From Candidatus Thorarchaeota archaeon (GTDB lineage: Archaea; Asgardarchaeota; Thorarchaeia; Thorarchaeales; Thorarchaeaceae), in the NCBI GenBank assembly GCA_016839445.1, contig JAEOUG010000095.1:1-13491 (forward strand): a DNA stretch of 13,491 nt, given 5' to 3'. A program made the position numbers and the translations under genes. The first letter of the stretch is position 1. Every line of letters begins with the position of its first letter. Under the pieces are notes generated by a model, which worked only from the letters and a program-made list of their open reading frames with translations, ran no database searches and had not been told where the DNA came from. Positions 272 to 11,552 of this stretch are shown here, piece after piece.

Positions 272-313
272 CGTAGTCGATTGAACTCGCCTGTTGAAGG
301 CCGGTGCGCAAAC

Positions 314-655
314 ATGGACCTTGACCCCTTTGCCAGATTCTTCAATCGCGTGTTTGGAAGGTGGGACGACTCTCCCAATGACCAGCAATACTACGTGAAG
401 ATCTTCTTCGCAATCATAAGCGCATTGATATGCGGTATTGGTGGCCCCTTCTTCGCTGGTACAAGAGGTCTGATGTTCGGCCTGCTTGTGTACGTCCTAA
501 GTCTGTTTGTTATTCGCTTCCTCCTTGAGATTGACCCACAGAAGCTCGGAGGAATGCAGAAGATGGTAACGAATTCACTACCGTCCTACCTCCTCCTCTG
601 GGTGGTGCTCTGGGCGCTGATATGGAACTTCTGGATTCCAGTGTTGTATCCGTAG
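314..655 (+). CDS. Small 3-TM membrane protein, EMC6/Rab5ip-like
   Basis: 113 aa from ATG 314 (the TTG at 281 is less likely). Three hydrophobic segments, and a C-terminal 'NSLPSYLLLWVVLWALIWNF' resembling the EMC6/Rab5ip motif (GLxxY/FxLxWxxxY). Family call is by eye. Confidence 0.6.
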   Translation: MDLDPFARFFNRVFGRWDDSPNDQQYYVKIFFAIISALICGIGGPFFAGTRGLMFGLLVYVLSLFVIRFLLEIDPQKLGGMQKMVTNSLPSYLLLWVVLWALIWNFWIPVLYP

Positions 656-2705: not shown

Positions 2706-3593
2706 ATGAAAGACCCGCATCAAGTGATTCATGACACAACGGTTCGCTTGCTCAAGAAGGCTGCAACGGAGCTCCCTCAAGACGTTAAGAGGGCATTGAA
2801 GGCAGCTCACGAGAGCGAAACCGATGAGGGTGCGAAGACGCAGCTCTCTGCAATACTGACTAACCTCGAGATTGCTGAAACTGGTGTCCCCATGTGCCAA
2901 GATACTGGCATCATCATCTACTATGTGAAAGCTGGGGCCAAGTTTCCTTTCATTGGTGAAGTCCGAGATGCCCTGACAAAGGCTACCAGAAAGGCAACTG
3001 CGGAGACTCCTCTGCGACCCAACGCTGTGAATCCCATCGTCGGCGGCAACTCAGGCGACAATACTGGAGCAAAGATTCCATGGATTAACTGGGAGATAGT
3101 GGAGGGTGACTCGCTTGAAATTACGGCCTTCCCAAAGGGCGGTGGAAGCGAGAACGTGTCCATCATTGGAATGCTGAAGCCTGGCGTTGGCCTCACCGGT
3201 GTCAAGAAGCTCATTGTGGACAATGCAATGAACTACATGGGAAAGGCATGCGCACCGAACATCATCGGAGTAGGTATTGGAGGAGGCGCAGACATAGCTA
3301 TCAAGATTGCTAAGCAGCAGCTGCTCCGTCCACTCAATGATCAGCACCCAGAGCCAGAAGTAGCTCAGATTGAGAAGGAACTCATGGAGGCTATCAATGC
3401 CACAGGCATTGGTCCGATGGGTCTGGGAGGAAAGACAACAGTGTTGGGCGTGAAGGTTGGATATGCAATGCGCCATCCCGCGAGCCTGCCTGTGGGCGTT
3501 GCTGTCCAATGCTGGGCCGCACGCCAGAGCACTGCGATAATCACTAAGGATCTAGAGGTCACCTACACAACACATCCTACGGAGGGCAACTAG
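2706..3593 (+). CDS. Class I (Fe-S) fumarate hydratase / tartrate dehydratase-type hydro-lyase, alpha subunit
   Basis: Motifs 'PMCQDTG', 'PLRPNAV', 'PKGGGSEN', 'KACAP..GVGIGG', 'GIGPMGLGG' and 'HPASLPV..QCWAAR', supplying three Cys ligands. ATG 2706 is preferred over the GTG at 2655. Fumarase specificity is inferred from the neighbouring fumarate reductase. Confidence 0.92.
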   Translation: MKDPHQVIHDTTVRLLKKAATELPQDVKRALKAAHESETDEGAKTQLSAILTNLEIAETGVPMCQDTGIIIYYVKAGAKFPFIGEVRDALTKATRKATAETPLRPNAVNPIVGGNSGDNTGAKIPWINWEIVEGDSLEITAFPKGGGSENVSIIGMLKPGVGLTGVKKLIVDNAMNYMGKACAPNIIGVGIGGGADIAIKIAKQQLLRPLNDQHPEPEVAQIEKELMEAINATGIGPMGLGGKTTVLGVKVGYAMRHPASLPVGVAVQCWAARQSTAIITKDLEVTYTTHPTEGN

Positions 3594-4202
3594 ATGACTG
3601 AACATCACCTAACAACACCAATCTCCGAAGAGGACGCTAGGAAACTGAAGGTCGGCGATGTAGTCTATGTAACAGGAGAACACGTCTACACTGCACGCGA
3701 CGAAGCCCATGAACGTGCACTGCACATGTTCGAGAAGGGAGAGAAGACTCCCGTAGACTTCGAGGGTAGTGTAGTATACCATGTGGGACCAGTAGCTTGG
3801 CAGAAGGACGGCAAATGGGTGATCGTTTCTGCTGGTCCAACGACAAGTGTTAGGATGGAGCTCTTCGAGGATGAGTTCCTTCGTAAGTACAAGGCACGCA
3901 TCATCGTGGGGAAGGGCGGCATGGGCAAGAAGACCCTTGGTGCCCTCCAAGAAGTGGGTGCAGTCTATTGCAGCTACACTGGTGGGTGTGGTGCACTTGC
4001 AGCCAAGGGTCTGAAGGAAGTCCGCGCGTATGAGTGGCAGGACCTTGGAATGCCCGAGGCGCTCTGGGTCATCACTGCCGAGGAGTTCGGTCCACTTCTT
4101 GTCACAATGGACTCACACGGTGGAAGTCTTCATGATGAGATGGACAAGAAAGTGGCATCCAGGAAATCAGAAGTCTACGCCAAGATTGGCATCAAGGAGT
4201 GA
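3594..4202 (+). CDS. Class I fumarate hydratase, beta subunit
   Basis: 'LKVGDVVYVTG', 'TARDEAH', 'GPTTSVRM', 'GKGGMG', 'DLGMPEA' and 'MDSHG'. Abuts the alpha-subunit stop (TAGATG) with a GGAGG RBS. Confidence 0.93.
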   Translation: MTEHHLTTPISEEDARKLKVGDVVYVTGEHVYTARDEAHERALHMFEKGEKTPVDFEGSVVYHVGPVAWQKDGKWVIVSAGPTTSVRMELFEDEFLRKYKARIIVGKGGMGKKTLGALQEVGAVYCSYTGGCGALAAKGLKEVRAYEWQDLGMPEALWVITAEEFGPLLVTMDSHGGSLHDEMDKKVASRKSEVYAKIGIKE

Positions 4203-4207
4203 ATCCT

Positions 4208-4232
4208 GAGGGGGCTATCCCCCTCCTTCTCT
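4208..4232 (+). terminator. GC-rich hairpin followed by a pyrimidine tract (putative terminator or stability element)
   Basis: GAGGGGG-CTAT-CCCCCTC (4208-4225), 5 nt after the stop codon, then CTTCTCT. Confidence 0.55.
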
Positions 4233-4331
4233 TCCATTGAATCCAGCAGTCCCGCCAGTACAGGAAGTCTTAAACGCCGCTCATTTTCCCGAGGCTCATC
4301 GTCACAGGACACTCTTACTGGAGGACGTCAG

Positions 4332-6020
4332 TTGGAATACAAGACAATCATGTGTGATGTGCTTGTTGTTGGCGCTGGAGGCGCCGGCTGCAGGGCAGCC
4401 ATCGAGGCATCACGACACAATCTGGACGTGATTATGCTCAGCAAAGAACTACTTGGCAAGGCTCACACAGCCATGGCTGAGGGTGGATACAATGTATCCC
4501 TTGGCAATGTTGATCCCGATGATAACCCCGAAACTCACTTCAAAGACACCATCGTGGGCGGGAACTACCTAAACAACCAGAAGCTTGCCAAGGTTCTTGT
4601 TGACAGAGCCCCACAGCACATCTTCGATTTAGAGGACATGGGAGCTGTATTCGACAGGACTCCGGAAGGGAAGATTGCTCAGAGAGTCTTCGGCAAGCAG
4701 AGCTGGAGGCGAACAGCCTATGCGTCAGACAGAACCGGCTCTGAAATCATGGTGACACTGACTGAAGCCATCAGAAAGACTTCTGTCAGGGTGTTCGACG
4801 AAGTGTTCGCCACCAGACTGCTTGTGACGAACGGCAAGATCGCCGGAGTCTGTGCTGTGGACCTGAAGTACGGCGACTATCTCGTATTCCGCGCCAAGTC
4901 TGTCATCATGGCGACAGGAGGAGCTGGAAGGATCTTCAAGGTCACCAGTAATGCCCAGCTCGATGTTGGCGATGGCTACGGCATGGCGTACGAGGCAGGC
5001 TGCGAAATGATTGACATGGAGATGGTTCAGTTCCATCCTACAGGCATGGTCAAACCCGAGTCTGCCAGAGGACGCCTGGTCACAGAGGCAGTCCGAGGCG
5101 AGGGTGGCATTCTGCTCAACAATCAGGGCGAGAGATTCATGCACAGGTACTACCCCGCGGTCATGGAGCTGGCAGGGCGGGACCAAGTGGCTCGATCGAT
5201 AATGACTGAGGTCCTGGAAGGGAGAGGGTCTCCCAGCGGCGGTGCATATCTAAGCATCTCGCATCTTCCAAGGTCAATCATCGAATTCCGACTTGAGAGC
5301 ATGATTGAACAGTTTGAGGATGCTGGTGTAGATATCCGTGATGAACCCATGGAAGTGTCTCCCACGGCCCATCATTTCATGGGCGGCATCAAGATTGACG
5401 AGGACGCAGCAACCAACATTCCCGGGCTTTTTGCATCCGGTGAGTGCACAGGAGGCGTTCACGGCGGCAATCGACTTGGTGGAAACGCGCTCGCTGACAC
5501 GCAGGTCTTCGGAGCAGTTTCAGGTGAGAGCGCGGCAAACTACGCACGTGAGAATCCCCATCTCGGCGTTGACCGCGAGGAGATTACCAAGGAATTCGGT
5601 CGCCTTGAAGCAATGCTAAGCCGAAAGGAGGGTGTATCTCCATCAGACGCGCGCGCAGAACTCACCGAGCTCATGTGGGAAAAGGTGCAGATCTTCAGAA
5701 AGGAAGAAGAGATGCAGGATGCAGTCAATCAGCTACGTCGAATCGAGAAAGAAGTCGTGCCAAAGATCAAGGTCGATGTGCCAGTGAAGAGATTCAACCC
5801 CGGCTGGCATCAAGCCATGGAGTTTGTCCACATGGTTACTACGGCACGAATGGTGGCTGAGGCTGCTGTACTGCGAAAGGGGAGCAGAGGCGCACACTAC
5901 CGAGTGGATGCAGACCCCAATGACAATGGCTACTACAACATCGTAATCAAGAAGGACAAGGATGGCAAGATGGTCCTGCGGAAGGAAGATCTTGTGATTA
6001 CTAGCATCACACCACCGTGA
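4332..6020 (+). CDS. tfrA: Fumarate reductase/succinate dehydrogenase flavoprotein; thiol:fumarate reductase subunit A-like
   Basis: FAD motif GAGGAG, 'AHTAMAEGG', and the dicarboxylate-site motifs QFHPT, TEAVRGEG, RDQVAR, HHFMGG and HGGNRLGGN, plus 'SRGAHYR'. TTG start with GGAGG at 4321-4325. The symbol is assigned from the partner's architecture. Confidence 0.9.
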   Translation: MEYKTIMCDVLVVGAGGAGCRAAIEASRHNLDVIMLSKELLGKAHTAMAEGGYNVSLGNVDPDDNPETHFKDTIVGGNYLNNQKLAKVLVDRAPQHIFDLEDMGAVFDRTPEGKIAQRVFGKQSWRRTAYASDRTGSEIMVTLTEAIRKTSVRVFDEVFATRLLVTNGKIAGVCAVDLKYGDYLVFRAKSVIMATGGAGRIFKVTSNAQLDVGDGYGMAYEAGCEMIDMEMVQFHPTGMVKPESARGRLVTEAVRGEGGILLNNQGERFMHRYYPAVMELAGRDQVARSIMTEVLEGRGSPSGGAYLSISHLPRSIIEFRLESMIEQFEDAGVDIRDEPMEVSPTAHHFMGGIKIDEDAATNIPGLFASGECTGGVHGGNRLGGNALADTQVFGAVSGESAANYARENPHLGVDREEITKEFGRLEAMLSRKEGVSPSDARAELTELMWEKVQIFRKEEEMQDAVNQLRRIEKEVVPKIKVDVPVKRFNPGWHQAMEFVHMVTTARMVAEAAVLRKGSRGAHYRVDADPNDNGYYNIVIKKDKDGKMVLRKEDLVITSITPP

Positions 6021-6033
6021 GGAGGCTACACTG

Positions 6034-7596
6034 ATGGCAAAGACGATCAAGACACGCGTGCAGAGATACAATCCAGACACAGATGACGCGCCCTACATTC
6101 AGGAGTTTGATGTGGAATACGAACCAGGGATGACAGTCCTTGACGCGCTCCTTTATGTTCAAGACAAGTATGACTCAAGCCTAGCATTCCGTTGGGAATG
6201 CCGAGGTGGCCAATGTGGCTCCTGTGCCGTGCGAGTAAACGGGACGGCTCGGATTGCATGCAGAACGAAGGTCGAGCCCGATGAAAGCCTTCTTCTCGAG
6301 CCCCTGGAAAAGATGCCAGTGGTCAAGGACTTGGTCACGGACATGTCACAGGTCACCTACCGAATAAGGAGAATTCGACCCTACGTTGCTAGGGACAAGC
6401 AGCCCCAGCATCCCGAAATCATACATGCCGATCAAATAGAGAAGCTAAGAGAGATTCGCAAGTGCATAGAGTGCAGCGCCTGTCTCTCGAATTGCCCCAT
6501 CGTGCACGAAACCTGGGACTACCCCGGCCCGATGATCATTCGCCAGTTGGCTCGCCTAGAGCTTGATCCTCGAGATGTAGAAGACCGCATTGCTATGGCA
6601 ATGAACGAGATGGTCTATAGCTGCACCACCTGTAAGATGTGCGAGGACATCTGCCCGAAGAAGATCAAGATTCCCTCTCTTGCTGTTGAATTGCTGCGAG
6701 CAAAGGCTGTAGAGGCTGGCTATCCTCTTGCAGAGGGCCAGCAAGGCTTCGTGAACCAGATCGTGAAGACTGGCCGAGCAGTACCTGAGAAAGACGCTCC
6801 ACTACTGAAAGAGATACCAACTGAGGAGTTCATTGTTGAGAATCCTAGAGGTAGAGTGGCCTTCTTCACCGGGTGTTTGATTGACTACAGAATGCAGAGC
6901 ACTGGCAAAGCGCTTATCGATGTCTTGAACCGGAACAATGTCGATGTCATAGTGCCCAAAGAGCAGTGGTGCTGTGCCAGCCCAGCGTTCAGAACAGGTG
7001 ATCTCAATACTGCAGGCGCAGCCGCGCGCAGGGTCACAGAAATCTTCGAAACCACCATGGAGAAGTACAACCTCGATACAGTGGTTGTTGCCTGTGCTGG
7101 GTGTGGAAAGACTCTCCGGGAGGACCACCGTCCCCTCATTGAGGAAGAACGGGGTGAAGCCCCCAAGTTCAAGGTGTACGACCTTGCGGAGTACCTCATC
7201 GATGTCATTGGGAAGGAGAACATAGTAAAACCCAAGGGTGAGATCAAGCTGAAAATCACCTATCATGAGCCCTGCCACCTTGGGAGGGGTCAGGGTGTTG
7301 TGACCCAGCCTATCGAGCTCCTCAAGATGATTCCCGGGGTGGAGTATATCGATGACCCTATGAAGAACAGATGTTGCGGAGCTGGAGGCGGAGTCCGTGC
7401 GGGCCTCAGGGATCTGTCCATGAAGATCGCCAACACCAAGAAGGAGTACATCATGAAGACCGGTGCAGATATGGTGACCACAGAGTGTCCCTTCTGCACG
7501 ATTCAAATCAATGACATGATGAAGGGTGAAACCATGGAGGTCCGGTACATCCCCGACCTGCTGTCCGAATCATACAGAATAGGAGAGGAGCAGTAA
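6034..7596 (+). CDS. tfrB: Thiol:fumarate reductase subunit B-like (FrdB/SdhB Fe-S module fused to two HdrB/HdrD-type CCG domains)
   Basis: 2Fe-2S motif CRGGQCGSC...C; two 4Fe-4S motifs CIECSACLSNCP and CTTCKMCEDICP; CCG domain 1 (FTGC..WCCASP..ACAGC) and domain 2 (YHEPCH..RCCGAGG..ECPFC). No TM segments. GAGGAGG RBS. Confidence 0.9.
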   Translation: MAKTIKTRVQRYNPDTDDAPYIQEFDVEYEPGMTVLDALLYVQDKYDSSLAFRWECRGGQCGSCAVRVNGTARIACRTKVEPDESLLLEPLEKMPVVKDLVTDMSQVTYRIRRIRPYVARDKQPQHPEIIHADQIEKLREIRKCIECSACLSNCPIVHETWDYPGPMIIRQLARLELDPRDVEDRIAMAMNEMVYSCTTCKMCEDICPKKIKIPSLAVELLRAKAVEAGYPLAEGQQGFVNQIVKTGRAVPEKDAPLLKEIPTEEFIVENPRGRVAFFTGCLIDYRMQSTGKALIDVLNRNNVDVIVPKEQWCCASPAFRTGDLNTAGAAARRVTEIFETTMEKYNLDTVVVACAGCGKTLREDHRPLIEEERGEAPKFKVYDLAEYLIDVIGKENIVKPKGEIKLKITYHEPCHLGRGQGVVTQPIELLKMIPGVEYIDDPMKNRCCGAGGGVRAGLRDLSMKIANTKKEYIMKTGADMVTTECPFCTIQINDMMKGETMEVRYIPDLLSESYRIGEEQ

Positions 7597-7626: not shown

Positions 7627-8883
7627 CTATCTTCCCTTCAAGTGCTGTCTCAACATTCTGTGGACTTGGAGAGCGGCTAGCCTGTCTGAAACAAGCCCGA
7701 GGTCTGCAAGGCTCCAAACGGCATGAGAGAAGATCATCACATGTGGTGAGTCAAAGACCCCATTGATGGCCGACATGGCATACTGAGATGCACGGACCAC
7801 GCCAGTATCATGGTCAGAGAGAGAGGGTATTCTGGCCTCAAATGAGCTAGACTTCTCGTCCATCATGTGGCTCCAGAACTCCGTGTTGTCAAGTAGCCAC
7901 GAGCGTAGGCTGTCAGAGTCAGGAAGACGGAGATGTGTCGGAGAATCTGGCCAATCTGTACCTCTCTGCTTCTTGATGAGGTCTTCCACTGCTGCTGGAG
8001 TGTCTGTGCCGGGTATGTTGCGCTTCAGTGTTCTAAGCAGCCAATCCACTGTACCGGAGTCGACCCAACCGTTTGAGGCGCTCTCCACAATTCTGTGCGC
8101 GAAGATTCCATTGTGTCCGAGAGTTCCATAGTCTACCACACTGGCAGCAATCAGGTCCTGACTCGAAGACACATCGGTGGGCTTCGCGTACCTCGACACC
8201 GAGGCATCGAGACCGGCCCCCACAGTTCTCTTCGATGGGACCTTCCTAACAAGATACTCTGCGAGGTGCCACAGTGAGGCCATCTGAGGTCTTGTGTATG
8301 CTGGCTGAGGAAGCTCGGCAACAAGCGACACTGGCAATATGAATCCGTGGCCCAACCTATCCGGCTCTTCTGCCGCAAGGGTTGCTGTAGCCCTCATCAG
8401 ATGGACTGGCTCTGTCTTCGAGGCAAGGACAAGTGCTGCCTTCATGACTCCAGTGTGGCTTCTCTTCCTTATTGAGAGCTCAAAGTTCTGGACAGCATTG
8501 CTCATTGACTCAAGTGAAACGTCTATGTCATACTTCGGCCCACGTTCAAGACGCCAATGATCGACATCGGCGAGGTAGAATGCCAATCGCTGGATCAAGG
8601 TATTCTGAAGAGGCTCCCTCAGTTCATCGGGTATTGGCAGACTTCCCGGAACCACTGTTTCTTCCAGCATTTCCGGATTTGGGCCAAGATCCTCAATCAT
8701 CCTGTGAATGGTGTACGTGAGGATGCATGCATGCGGGGTGTCGTAGGTTCTCTCCTCATGCCAGGCTGCAGCGTGCATCAGAATCGCCCAGATTGCAGAA
8801 GGCTTCGCTGAGCCCAACATCTTTCTGAGTGAGTTCACTGCCTGTCTACCATCAGCCTTCAGACAGGCCTCAAGAAGGTCCAT
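7627..8883 (-). CDS. Hypothetical all-alpha protein (~418 aa) with four repeated His-containing motifs
   Basis: A long ORF that fills the gap. ATG 8883 is preceded by an AGGTGGAG RBS, whereas the track start at 8967 overlaps the upstream gene. Motifs DTPHACIL, DRLGHGFIL, GTLGHNGIF and DSPHVMIF. Confidence 0.85.
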   Translation of the reverse strand: MDLLEACLKADGRQAVNSLRKMLGSAKPSAIWAILMHAAAWHEERTYDTPHACILTYTIHRMIEDLGPNPEMLEETVVPGSLPIPDELREPLQNTLIQRLAFYLADVDHWRLERGPKYDIDVSLESMSNAVQNFELSIRKRSHTGVMKAALVLASKTEPVHLMRATATLAAEEPDRLGHGFILPVSLVAELPQPAYTRPQMASLWHLAEYLVRKVPSKRTVGAGLDASVSRYAKPTDVSSSQDLIAASVVDYGTLGHNGIFAHRIVESASNGWVDSGTVDWLLRTLKRNIPGTDTPAAVEDLIKKQRGTDWPDSPTHLRLPDSDSLRSWLLDNTEFWSHMMDEKSSSFEARIPSLSDHDTGVVRASQYAMSAINGVFDSPHVMIFSHAVWSLADLGLVSDRLAALQVHRMLRQHLKGR

Positions 8884-8939
8884 CGAATCTCCACCTAGGA
8901 AGAGTGCGCGCTCTGTGCATTTATCTCTTGACGGCTTGC

Positions 8940-9470
8940 CTAGGAAACGATGAACGACTCCCGGCACATTGTGCAGGTAATTGTTTCGCCCTTGACAGCT
9001 ATCCTGTTCAGCTCGTGTCTACAGAACGGGCATGCCGCTATCGTTTTCGGTGCAGGACCAGTTCCTGTTCCCAAAATGAAGTCCCCTGCATCATGGTCAA
9101 CGCGACCGGACAGCTCTCTTCCATCAAGCAAATCCTGAAGGATTCTAGTGACTTGCATAGCAGGGACTCCAGCCTCCTGAGAGATGCGTTCGATTGAGAT
9201 TCGACGGAATGACTGAACGGCGTTTCTGACTGCTGTAACGGGGTCCGTCCGTGCCTTGGTCAAGTCCTCTTGTGGCGGTGCTTTGTCAAGTGTGGCTCTG
9301 GCCGCAGCCAGGCCTGTGGCCTGCCCTCCGACTAGCTGTAGCTGTGCCTTCAGTGTCTCGAGTCTGCTGTTGTATTCGTCATCCGAGAGCAGCCCTCGCA
9401 TGTAGTCAAGGTCAAGATCCTTGATTGCTGCCTCGAGCTTCTCGGCATCTCTATGGGAGGAGCCTTCCAC
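8940..9470 (-). CDS. Hypothetical protein: SHOCT-like helical hairpin + PCI-like winged helix + C4 zinc ribbon
   Basis: Residues ~16-44 'IKDLDLDYMRGLLSDDEYNSRLETLKAQL'; residues ~88-133 'FRRISIERISQEAGVPAMQVTRILQDLLDGRELSGRVDHDAGDFIL'; CPFC-x15-CTMC. GTG start with AGGAG upstream. Domain calls are by eye. Confidence 0.8.
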   Translation of the reverse strand: MEGSSHRDAEKLEAAIKDLDLDYMRGLLSDDEYNSRLETLKAQLQLVGGQATGLAAARATLDKAPPQEDLTKARTDPVTAVRNAVQSFRRISIERISQEAGVPAMQVTRILQDLLDGRELSGRVDHDAGDFILGTGTGPAPKTIAACPFCRHELNRIAVKGETITCTMCRESFIVS

Positions 9471-9620: not shown

Positions 9621-10010
9621 ATGCACGAGTTCTCTGCCGCATGCTCAATTGTGGATACAGCAGTAGAGGCAGCCAGAGCCAACAGAGCAACGAAGGTTGC
9701 AGTTGTCAACGTGGAGGTCGGTGAATTCACGTTTCTGATTCCCGAGCAGCTTGAGTTCAATTTCGAGATAGCTAGTAAGAACACAATCCTGGAAGGAGCT
9801 CAGCTCAACATATCAAGGACTCCCGGGATTCTCAAATGCTCTGAGTGTGGTACCGAAGGTCCGGCGGAGATGGATCCTGCTCTTCCTCCACAGATCGCAG
9901 TCTTTTCCCCAATGAAGTGTCCGAAGTGTGGGAGCAGTAGTACTACGATTACTGGTGGTAAGGAGTTCGTGATAACCAGCATCGAGGCTGAGGTAGAAGC
10001 CTCTGTCTAG
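9621..10010 (+). CDS. hypA: Hydrogenase maturation nickel metallochaperone HypA
   Basis: N-terminal MHE nickel motif, 'VGEFTFLIPEQLEFNF', Zn site CSEC...CPKC and C-terminal 'GGKEFVITSIE'. Confidence 0.96.
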   Translation: MHEFSAACSIVDTAVEAARANRATKVAVVNVEVGEFTFLIPEQLEFNFEIASKNTILEGAQLNISRTPGILKCSECGTEGPAEMDPALPPQIAVFSPMKCPKCGSSSTTITGGKEFVITSIEAEVEASV

Positions 10011-10538: not shown

Positions 10539-11552
10539 ATGCCCAAGATCGAGTCTGCCCACGGAGCGGGGGGCAAGATAATGCAGAAGCTGCTTGAGGA
10601 GGTCATTATCCCATCCTTCACTCTCAGGAGAATGGGAGCAGTAGGGCTCGACGAAATGGATGACGGGGCAACAGTCCAGATGGATGGCACGAGGTTTGTG
10701 GTCTGTACCGACGCCCACACTGTCCATCCAATCTTCTTCCCTGGGGGCAATCTCGGCACCCTTACTGCCTGTGGCACAATCAATGACCTTGCCGTTATGG
10801 GCGCTAGACCAATAGCAATGACAAACACTGTCATTGTAGAGGAAGGCTTTGAGATAGAAACGCTTCAGACTCTGTTGTCTTCCCTGAATGATGTCATCGA
10901 GCCTCTTGGTGTAGCCATGGTTGCGGGAGACACGAAAGTGATGCCTCCTGGGACCCTAGATGGAATAGTGATGTCAACTACAGGCATTGGAGAAGTCTAC
11001 GGAGAAGACATTGTGACCGATGCAGGGGCCAAGCTCGGTGATGATATCGTCGTGACTGGACCGATAGGAGCCCACGGGACATCTCTTCTTGCCCATAGAG
11101 AAGGCCTGGAGTTCGACACAGATCTTGAGAGCGATGTCGCTCCACTCTGGGAGCCAATCCGCGCATGCCTTGACATTGGCGGCGTTCATGCGATGAAGGA
11201 CCCGACAAGGGGCGGCACCGCAGTAGCACTGAATGAGATTGCATCCAAGTCTAAGGTGGAGCTGGAGCTAGAGGAGGGAATGATTCCCGTCCAATCGGCA
11301 GTGAGGTCTCTCTGTGAAGTGCTTGGACTAGACCCCCTGAACATGTCCTGTGAAGGAACTGTCGTGATGTTGATTGACCCTTCCAAGACCTCTTCCATCA
11401 TTGACGCTTTACGTCAGTATCCGTCAACGAAGAATGCCACAGTCGTAGGCAAGGCCACCAGCGGTCCGCCGCGAGTTGTCATGAAGACAGAGATTGGTGG
11501 CAGGAAAGTGATTCAGGTTCCGTACGGAGAGCCTGTGCCTAGAGTCTGCTAG
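10539..11552 (+). CDS. hypE: Hydrogenase maturation carbamoyl dehydratase HypE
   Basis: 'AHGAGGK', 'TDAHTVHPIFFPGGNLG', 'GTINDLAVMGARP', 'GDTKV', 'MKDPTRGG', 'LGLDPL' and the C-terminal PRVC with its catalytic Cys. GGAGGA RBS. Confidence 0.97.
   Translation: MPKIESAHGAGGKIMQKLLEEVIIPSFTLRRMGAVGLDEMDDGATVQMDGTRFVVCTDAHTVHPIFFPGGNLGTLTACGTINDLAVMGARPIAMTNTVIVEEGFEIETLQTLLSSLNDVIEPLGVAMVAGDTKVMPPGTLDGIVMSTTGIGEVYGEDIVTDAGAKLGDDIVVTGPIGAHGTSLLAHREGLEFDTDLESDVAPLWEPIRACLDIGGVHAMKDPTRGGTAVALNEIASKSKVELELEEGMIPVQSAVRSLCEVLGLDPLNMSCEGTVVMLIDPSKTSSIIDALRQYPSTKNATVVGKATSGPPRVVMKTEIGGRKVIQVPYGEPVPRVC

Follow-up and report, generated by a model that had tools for sequence, protein, structure and literature searches.

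A fumarase and Tfr-type fumarate reductase gene cluster in a non-methanogenic thorarchaeon

What would supply the electrons for a fumarate reductase of the methanogen type in an archaeon that is not a methanogen? The question is raised by a 13,491-nucleotide (nt) stretch of DNA from Candidatus Thorarchaeota archaeon (GenBank assembly GCA_016839445.1, contig JAEOUG010000095.1), called the window below, which is a whole contig of an assembly of 2.91 Mb in 190 contigs (89.8% complete, 6.45% contamination). Between positions 2706 and 7596 the window carries genes for the alpha and beta subunits of a fumarase, for a flavoprotein, and for a protein in which an FrdB-like half is fused to two CCG domains. 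We propose, at a probability of roughly 60%, that the cluster encodes a thiol-driven fumarate reductase of the thiol:fumarate reductase (Tfr) type, whose disulfide product would be recycled by Hdr and Mvh enzymes and whose succinate would enter succinyl-CoA metabolism. An earlier sequence-only reading had named these four genes, and open reading frame (ORF), Pfam and NCBIfam analyses find each ORF and domain where it was claimed; the interpretation built on them is supported in part, and every checkable part of it holds. The features of the cluster are the following.

2706..3593, forward strand: fumA, alpha subunit of a class I (Fe-S) fumarate hydratase (PF05681, E 2.7e-91)
3594..4202, forward strand: fumB, beta subunit of a class I fumarate hydratase (PF05683, E 7e-46)
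4210..4235, forward strand: inverted repeat GGGGG-CTAT-CCCCC with a pyrimidine-rich run after it, 8 nt past the fumB stop, read from the sequence
4332..6020, forward strand: tfrA, fumarate reductase flavoprotein (PF00890, FAD_binding_2, E 1.7e-98; PF02910, Succ_DH_flav_C, E 8.8e-24)
6034..7596, forward strand: tfrB, FrdB-CCG-CCG fusion of 520 residues (Fer2_3, Fer4_8 and two CCG domains)
6034..6765, forward strand: N-terminal half of TfrB, FrdB/SdhB-like (PF13085, E 6.5e-33; PF13183, E 2.7e-12)
6766..7596, forward strand: C-terminal half of TfrB, two CCG domains (PF02754 in two stretches, E 5.1e-32)

Both reductase subunits find their closest models in the Tfr family. TfrB matches the TfrB equivalog NF004898 with 523.2 bits (cut-off 385) over profile positions 2-487 of 488, and among the 54 families matched by TfrA the top one is the TfrA equivalog NF004900, at 685 bits. 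The tfrA gene starts with TTG, 7 nt after a GGAGG, and no additional gene separates or adjoins tfrA and tfrB. The cofactor and catalytic motifs of TfrA are intact: GAGGAG (residues 14-19), KAHT (43-46), whose His stands at the position of covalent flavin adenine dinucleotide (FAD) attachment, FHPTG (234-238), RGEGG (255-259), HHFMGG (347-352) and GNRLGGN (379-385). TfrA aligns to the SdhA structures 7d6v_A and 6lum_A, and the blocks HPTG, RGEGG, HHFMGG and GNRLGGN are common to solved SdhA and FrdA proteins. Residues 8-221 of TfrB match SdhB/FrdB structures (E about 4e-37). Specifically, TfrB contains a single copy of a [2Fe-2S] motif, read from the translation at residues 56-76 (nt 6199-6261), and two complete CxxCxxCxxxCP ferredoxin motifs at residues 144-155 (CIECSACLSNCP) and 197-208 (CTTCKMCEDICP). 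Since both ferredoxin motifs keep their four cysteines, two [4Fe-4S] clusters and no [3Fe-4S] cluster are expected. Two [4Fe-4S] clusters, replacing the [3Fe-4S] cluster of quinone-linked complex II, are a trait that distinguishes Tfr. By hydropathy, FumA, FumB, TfrA and TfrB are all predicted to be soluble and without a membrane segment, with no 19-residue Kyte-Doolittle window above 1.6. No gene for an SdhC/SdhD or FrdC/FrdD anchor is present in the window, although no anchor-model search was made genome-wide, and the lack of an SdhC/D-type anchor in the cluster agrees with what had been noticed from the letters. An Rfam scan of the window found no family.

The CCG half of TfrB is presumed to be the site of thiol oxidation, which would take place on two noncubane [4Fe-4S] clusters. 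It carries two intact CCG motifs, at residues 281-357 (nt 6874-7104) and 414-488 (nt 7273-7497), and aligns to the HdrB structures 9sfi_C (E 5e-17) and 5odc_B (E 5e-16), the two motifs falling in register; for Tfr itself there is no solved structure. Taken alone, this half (residues 245-520) scores 264.7 bits on the TfrB model, 178.7 on LdhH, 144 on GlpC and 80.8 on HdrB. We placed TfrB by a library search that returned 790 representatives at E<=1e-30; 76 of the best 150 are full-length FrdB-CCG-CCG proteins of 470-600 residues, and these form the rows of a quick maximum-likelihood tree, in which 20 rows were looked up and organism names are available for 5 of those clusters. The thorarchaeal protein pairs with the Asgard representative P0072 (SH-aLRT, the Shimodaira-Hasegawa-like approximate likelihood-ratio test, 95), and the two fall in a 12-row clade (SH-aLRT 87) with TfrB of Methanococcus maripaludis, TfrB of Methanopyrus and a homologue from Methanomicrobiaceae. 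None of the rows was recognised as the characterised Methanothermobacter protein. Identity to M. maripaludis TfrB (P0126) is 43%, and identity to methanogen TfrB is 41-45% in the CCG half and 38-39% in the FrdB half. The thorarchaeal and methanogen CCG halves have in common the blocks FFTGCL.D.R.Q, PK.Q.CC.SP..RTG, CAGCG.TL, TYH.PCHL.RGQG, CCGAGGGVR.G and CPFC. The methanogen TfrAB architecture first recognised from the sequence is thus borne out by the equivalog score of TfrB and by its clade.

The two upstream genes were scored on fumarase and on tartrate dehydratase models. The alpha subunit reaches 322 bits on the fumarate hydratase model NF004885, above the cut-off of 276, and 255.5 bits on the tartrate dehydratase model TtdA, below the cut-off of 365. 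For the beta subunit the top NCBIfam model is the fumarate hydratase NF004708 (229.7 bits, under its cut-off of 269), the TtdB score is lower (208.9 bits), and the subfamily domain TIGR00723 is matched with 205.4 bits (cut-off 145). The fumA frame extends upstream to a GTG at 2655, but translation more likely begins with the in-frame ATG at 2706. Between the two gene pairs, the inverted repeat at 4210-4235 could fold into a hairpin and is possibly a transcript end or an attenuator.

The four genes are kept together in relatives. TfrB proteins 74-87% identical to that of the window occur at 71 loci, two of them on complete chromosomes and nearly all in metagenome-assembled genomes labelled Thorarchaeota or Promethearchaeota. 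Counting just the loci with enough room, 60 of 62 encode TfrA directly upstream of TfrB and 47 of 52 have FumA and FumB on the upstream side. This order of the four genes is conserved far beyond chance, and the cluster is syntenic in about 70 thorarchaeal species. Median identities over these loci are 85% for TfrA, 83% for TfrB and 88% for FumB; those of two neighbouring genes are 49% and 38%, indicating strong purifying selection on the fum-tfr genes. The distance from fumB to tfrA lies anywhere between 125 and 1788 nt at the thorarchaeal loci, and because its length varies in relatives we describe fumAB and tfrAB as conserved neighbours and not as a proven operon. In other thorarchaeal genomes this space measures 0.4-1.8 kb and occasionally holds small ORFs on the opposite strand. 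ORFs inside it were tried as pathway partners and rejected, seven of the eight tested having no Pfam match and one being TrmO.

The host is a non-methanogenic thorarchaeon; the reading from sequence had suspected an Asgard-like host from other genes. McrA is absent from its genome and from all of its genus (0/28 genomes), and the whole neighbourhood of the cluster is colinear in thorarchaeal relatives, so the contig is genuinely thorarchaeal and not contamination. Within the thorarchaeal family ComA is found in 0/86 genomes and ComE over its cut-off in 0/86, a relative scoring 102-161 bits being present in 18/86, with the host genome not among them. The single-contig thorarchaeal genomes G320 and G368 both contain TfrB and HdrB, and both lack ComA and an over-cut-off ComE. 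Since ComA, ComE and McrA are absent, coenzyme M (CoM-SH) and coenzyme B (CoB-SH), the sole proven donors of the Tfr family, have no known source here.

We then asked how these genes are distributed in a survey of 400 genomes of the Asgard phylum, in which TfrB, HdrB, ComA and ComE were cross-tabulated row by row. TfrB is over its cut-off in 111 genomes. Besides the host, 74 of the 85 other genomes of the thorarchaeal family have it, and it also occurs in seven other families (f4, 3/3; f6, 3/4; f14, 14/19; f16, 4/6; f22, 7/135; f30, 4/5; f32, 1/1). HdrB is found in 264/400 genomes, that is, in 108/111 with TfrB versus 156/289 without it; the three TfrB-bearing genomes that lack HdrB are 69-81% complete, and TfrB is found in no HdrB-less family. 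As relatives are not independent, this co-occurrence describes a pattern without amounting to a test. ComA is present in 17/400 genomes, including four of the 111 with TfrB, every one in f16. A ComE-like gene (E<=1e-50) is present in 123/400, 82 of the 135 f22 genomes among them, and is over the cut-off in 89/400, indicating that many Asgard archaea possess the late CoM enzyme ComE without the ComA entry step. Among TfrB-bearing genomes the ComE-like gene occurs in 23/111 (f14, 12/14; f16, 4/4; f22, 5/7; f4, 2/3), in 0/75 of the thorarchaeal family and in none of f6, f30 and f32. Thorarchaea thus stand out from most other Asgard families with Tfr as the large lineage in which TfrB and HdrBC occur together while both CoM markers are missing, and this is the modest point that our analysis adds.

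The machinery that could re-reduce a disulfide is present in the host genome. Two HdrB and two HdrC proteins, over their equivalog cut-offs, are encoded beside KorABD on contig C186; contig C117 carries an HdrA-MvhD fusion with HdrCB; and contig C164 carries an MvhA-G-D-HdrA-HdrB-HdrC cluster, with a second MvhAGD set on contig C145. The genome further encodes HdrA-like proteins and six MvhD domains, one MvhD being adjoined by FdhA. The HdrB and HdrC genes of C186 (positions 1-16000) form two divergent HdrC-HdrB pairs, all four over equivalog cut-offs, that adjoin the genes for KorB-like, KorA and KorD-like proteins; a radical SAM gene separates the pairs, and a 1033-residue HdrA-like protein comes after.

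Our scheme for the pathway is as follows. In the cytoplasm, the two-subunit Fe-S fumarase would dehydrate malate to fumarate, which TfrAB would reduce to succinate at the FAD of TfrA. The FAD would receive its electrons via the two [4Fe-4S] clusters and the [2Fe-2S] cluster of TfrB, the point of entry being the two CCG-domain clusters, where a thiol pair would be oxidised to a disulfide. HdrABC-MvhADG, encoded elsewhere in the genome, would re-reduce the disulfide with H2 (or formate). Succinate would be converted to succinyl-CoA and then to 2-oxoglutarate (through Kor) or methylmalonyl-CoA (through the mutase) and propionyl-CoA; KorA of the host scores 556 bits (cut-off 411) and adjoins the Hdr genes, and methylmalonyl-CoA mutase is represented by two genes in the host genome. 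The reductive direction, the use of a thiol and the coupling to Hdr are the parts of this scheme that we infer.

Several observations weigh against it. TfrA lies 33 bits below the NF004900 equivalog cut-off of 718. The gaps between fumAB and tfrAB vary among relatives, and the hdr and mvh genes are not adjacent to tfrAB. The suggestion, made from the sequence, that the sink could be recharged by an Mvh/Hdr-type hydrogenase is supported as far as the presence of enzymes that could recycle the disulfide. The known CoM route is missing from the thorarchaeal family, as described above, and a new thiol for the thorarchaeal enzyme is something we infer. SucC was not found in the host assembly, nor was a malate dehydrogenase of the Ldh/Mdh type, to which the search for malate-oxidising enzymes was confined, so the flanking metabolic steps are reconstructed partly from relatives. 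SucC is over its cut-off in 25/28 genomes of the genus, and because nearly all congeners (25/27) have it we read its absence from the host as an assembly gap, a case that calls for caution on absences from single genomes. CCG domains alone are no proof of thiol chemistry, and the CCG half of TfrB is closer to LdhH and GlpC, which are annotated as quinone-linked, than to HdrB. Finally, a MenA-like prenyltransferase matches TIGR00751 with 87.8 bits in the host (cut-off 102) and is over the cut-off in 16/28 congeners, so that a prenylated carrier is possible.

The last two observations are also the ones that would fit TfrAB being a peripheral, anchor-less quinol:fumarate (or succinate:quinone) reductase resembling type E, with the fused CCG half as its quinone site. 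We consider this quite unlikely. An SdhE-type quinone anchor had been named at the outset as the alternative identity of the CCG half, but residues 245-520 of TfrB are not hit by the SdhE anchor model NF042965 at E<=1e-5, while the host's own HdrB proteins score 141-160 bits there. Hydropathy reveals no hydrophobic or amphipathic anchor segment, and the nearest labelled relatives are methanogen TfrB proteins; to our knowledge, methanogens have no quinones. A pathway for the naphthoquinone ring is not recognisable from the gene content of host or genus, MqnA/D being found in 0/28 genomes of the genus and MenB over its cut-off in 0/28, with MenD absent from the host genome. The gene for the MenA-like UbiA prenyltransferase, on contig C182 (L107:8541-9653, reverse strand), whose top model is 1,4-dihydroxy-2-naphthoate polyprenyltransferase (145.9 bits, cut-off 264), stands beside an actin homologue with no men genes adjoining.

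If quinones are set aside, the CCG clusters might still do no more than relay electrons: TfrAB would take them, without any free thiol/disulfide couple, from a protein on which it docks, whether ferredoxin, a module of the HdrA/MvhD type or a partner linked to F420H2 or NAD(P)H. Such docking would suit a family without a known CoM pathway, a genus with DsrC in 0/28 congeners and a genome with many HdrA/MvhD paralogues without assigned partners, and by their family descriptions the CCG proteins GlpC and LdhH are not known as thiol users. We nevertheless judge it unlikely: the blocks near both CCG active sites are almost those of methanogen TfrB, which points to the same chemistry; tfrAB has no conserved adjoining partner gene across about 70 thorarchaeal loci; and a shared small substrate would account equally well for the nesting of TfrB within HdrB-bearing genomes. 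DsrC was also considered as a protein dithiol partner of TfrAB, and was dropped because it is absent from the host genome as well as from all congeners examined.

The direction of a thiol-driven reaction is suggested by redox potentials. Fumarate/succinate has a midpoint potential of about +30 mV and the heterodisulfide CoM-S-S-CoB one of about -140 mV, which would favour fumarate reduction. Running the other way, TfrAB would serve an oxidative, partial tricarboxylic acid (TCA) cycle as its soluble succinate dehydrogenase, handing the electrons to a disulfide or to a different acceptor. In principle complex II enzymes can work in either direction, and Kor together with succinyl-CoA synthetase could yield succinate from glutamate breakdown, but the same potentials make disulfide reduction by succinate strongly uphill, and no high-potential acceptor system is seen, as the quinone pathway is not recognisable. 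The characterised family member, the Methanothermobacter enzyme, is a reductase according to papers that cite Heim et al. 1998. Oxidation of succinate by this enzyme therefore appears most improbable.

The identity of the thiol in the Tfr-type, fumarate-reducing scheme has two sides: conservation of the active site favours CoM/CoB-like substrates, and gene content argues against home-made CoM. Since methanogen TfrB has nearly identical residues around its CCG motifs, CoM and CoB (scavenged or made by another route) or close analogues are possible donors, and other thiols are possible too. The sequence-only reading had pointed to an uncharacterised thiol-based electron sink; the known CoM markers are indeed missing, but the conserved CCG surroundings leave room for CoM/CoB or analogues, and the idea is already in print. 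More speculatively, TfrAB might form the disulfide-generating half of an Mcr-independent thiol loop that runs on thiols other than CoM and CoB, in which, together with HdrABC-MvhADG, fumarate would be the high-potential acceptor of flavin-based electron bifurcation. We hold this extension to be tentative and rather doubtful. If true, H2 and fumarate would yield succinate while ferredoxin is reduced, a quinone-free, cytoplasmic and fumarate-dependent form of energy coupling that would feed the Wood-Ljungdahl pathway. We know of no enzyme besides Mcr and Tfr that makes the heterodisulfide.

The cluster sits in a neighbourhood that is colinear in thorarchaeal loci: ORF 281-655, an A24 peptidase, fumAB, tfrAB, a 446-residue ORF, a PCI-domain protein and HypA, followed by S8e, HypE, ScpB, ScpA and SMC. 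Two of these genes lie convergent to tfrB.

7627-8967, reverse strand: ORF of 446 residues, no Pfam or NCBIfam match, kept in 51 thorarchaeal loci at 43-54% identity
8940-9470, reverse strand: PCI-domain protein of 176 residues (PF01399, E 1.5e-5), kept in 55 thorarchaeal loci at 53-70% identity

HypA (9621-10010) and HypE (10539-11552), which had been brought into the first interpretation as a nearby link to hydrogenase, are confirmed in position; flanked as they are by housekeeping genes (S8e, ScpAB, SMC), their proximity amounts to no functional link. On the other side of the cluster, ORF 281-655 (forward strand) encodes 124 residues with three hydrophobic stretches and is found upstream of the cluster in 46 thorarchaeal loci at 47-71% identity. 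Its sole Pfam match at E<=10 is EMC6 (PF07019; E 0.022, 15.7 bits, profile positions 3-80 of 81), and it may be an archaeal relative of the eukaryotic endoplasmic reticulum membrane complex subunit. As the sole small hydrophobic ORF near the cluster it was considered as a hidden SdhC/D anchor, and we ruled this out, as it is weakly EMC6-like and lies 2 kb upstream, past three genes. The complete thorarchaeal chromosome CP070658.1 (1450793-1468016) carries a second, N-terminally truncated copy of TfrB (residues 113-520, 83% identity), which has no TfrA upstream and adjoins the PCI/HypA/S8e/HypE block; the full fum-tfr cluster lies elsewhere on that chromosome. The sequencing runs listed as carrying the cluster are all DNA, being metagenomes of marine sediment, estuary, mangrove and soil.

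The enzyme is already on record in NCBI annotation and in Asgard papers, and the gene cluster itself is ordinary. NCBI gives the name 'fumarate reductase (CoM/CoB) subunit TfrB' to thorarchaeal orthologues of 81-87% identity and to relatives of 42-51% identity in Atabeyarchaeia, Hodarchaeota/Hodarchaeales and Bathyarchaeia. Passages of Zhang 2021 (PMC8163825) describe for Hermodarchaeota a fumarate reductase of the Tfr type, located in the cytoplasm, and leave a CoM-S-S-CoB cycle in most Asgard archaea undetermined, and Sun 2021 (PMC9723677) has a passage proposing a Tfr that uses CoM/CoB in Sifarchaeia. In Adam 2022, Asgard Tfr is cited and MtrAH is noted in Thorarchaeia; a Tfr phylogeny is available in Mei 2023 (PMC9982363). 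For Asgard Hdr, Valentin-Alvarado 2024 (PMC11291895) invokes an 'unidentified heterodisulfide compound', and it also reports a ComABC pathway in Freyarchaeia. The Asgard Tfr papers that we read do not discuss the thorarchaeal cluster, its fumarase neighbour or the ComA/ComE contrast; their supplements may list thorarchaeal Tfr genes. The present genome, which lacks Mcr, also encodes MtrH-MtrA-MtrH with an adjoining MetF-like gene (C184:625-4147; MtrH 389.9 bits, cut-off 271).

The interest of the enzyme lies in Asgard redox chemistry more broadly. Asgard archaea keep a methanogen-type HdrABC-MvhADG without forming methane, and its disulfide substrate is acknowledged as a question in a passage of PMC11291895. 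Tfr is nearly universal and strongly conserved in Thorarchaeia, which have neither known CoM marker. Being soluble and made of two subunits, the thorarchaeal enzyme is a practical handle on the Asgard redox carrier, and also on a possible role of fumarate as electron sink or bifurcation acceptor in kin of the eukaryotic host lineage.

We compared the thorarchaeal proteins with four known systems. Within the same phylum, the Tfr of Hermodarchaeota and Sifarchaeia, as presented in the cited passages, belongs to the same family and raises the same question about its thiol. The type E succinate:quinone oxidoreductase and the methylmenaquinol:fumarate reductase resemble it in that CCG domains take the place of a haem-bearing SdhC/D anchor; their CCG domains form the separate subunit SdhE, whereas those of the thorarchaeal enzyme are fused to the Fe-S subunit and do not match the SdhE model. 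HdrB of HdrABC-MvhADG (5odc_B, 9sfi_C) has two CCG motifs in register with those of TfrB, including CCGAGGGVRA and CPFC, and by this analogy the CCG half is expected to share the noncubane cluster chemistry of HdrB. It differs in scoring 80.8 bits on the HdrB model (cut-off 345), in being fused to FrdB without HdrC/HdrA partners, and in the direction in which it would be expected to run, oxidising thiols. The fourth system is methanogen TfrAB. The thorarchaeal host differs from methanogens in lacking Mcr, ComA and ComE, its TfrB is 26-30 residues longer, and its first CC motif is CCASP where most aligned relatives have CCGSP. In both, however, the enzyme is soluble and has two subunits, a flavoprotein in which every catalytic residue is kept and a B subunit made of an FrdB half (a [2Fe-2S] motif and two four-Cys motifs) and two CCG domains, and in both it is set beside a partial reductive TCA branch of fumarase, succinyl-CoA synthetase and Kor.

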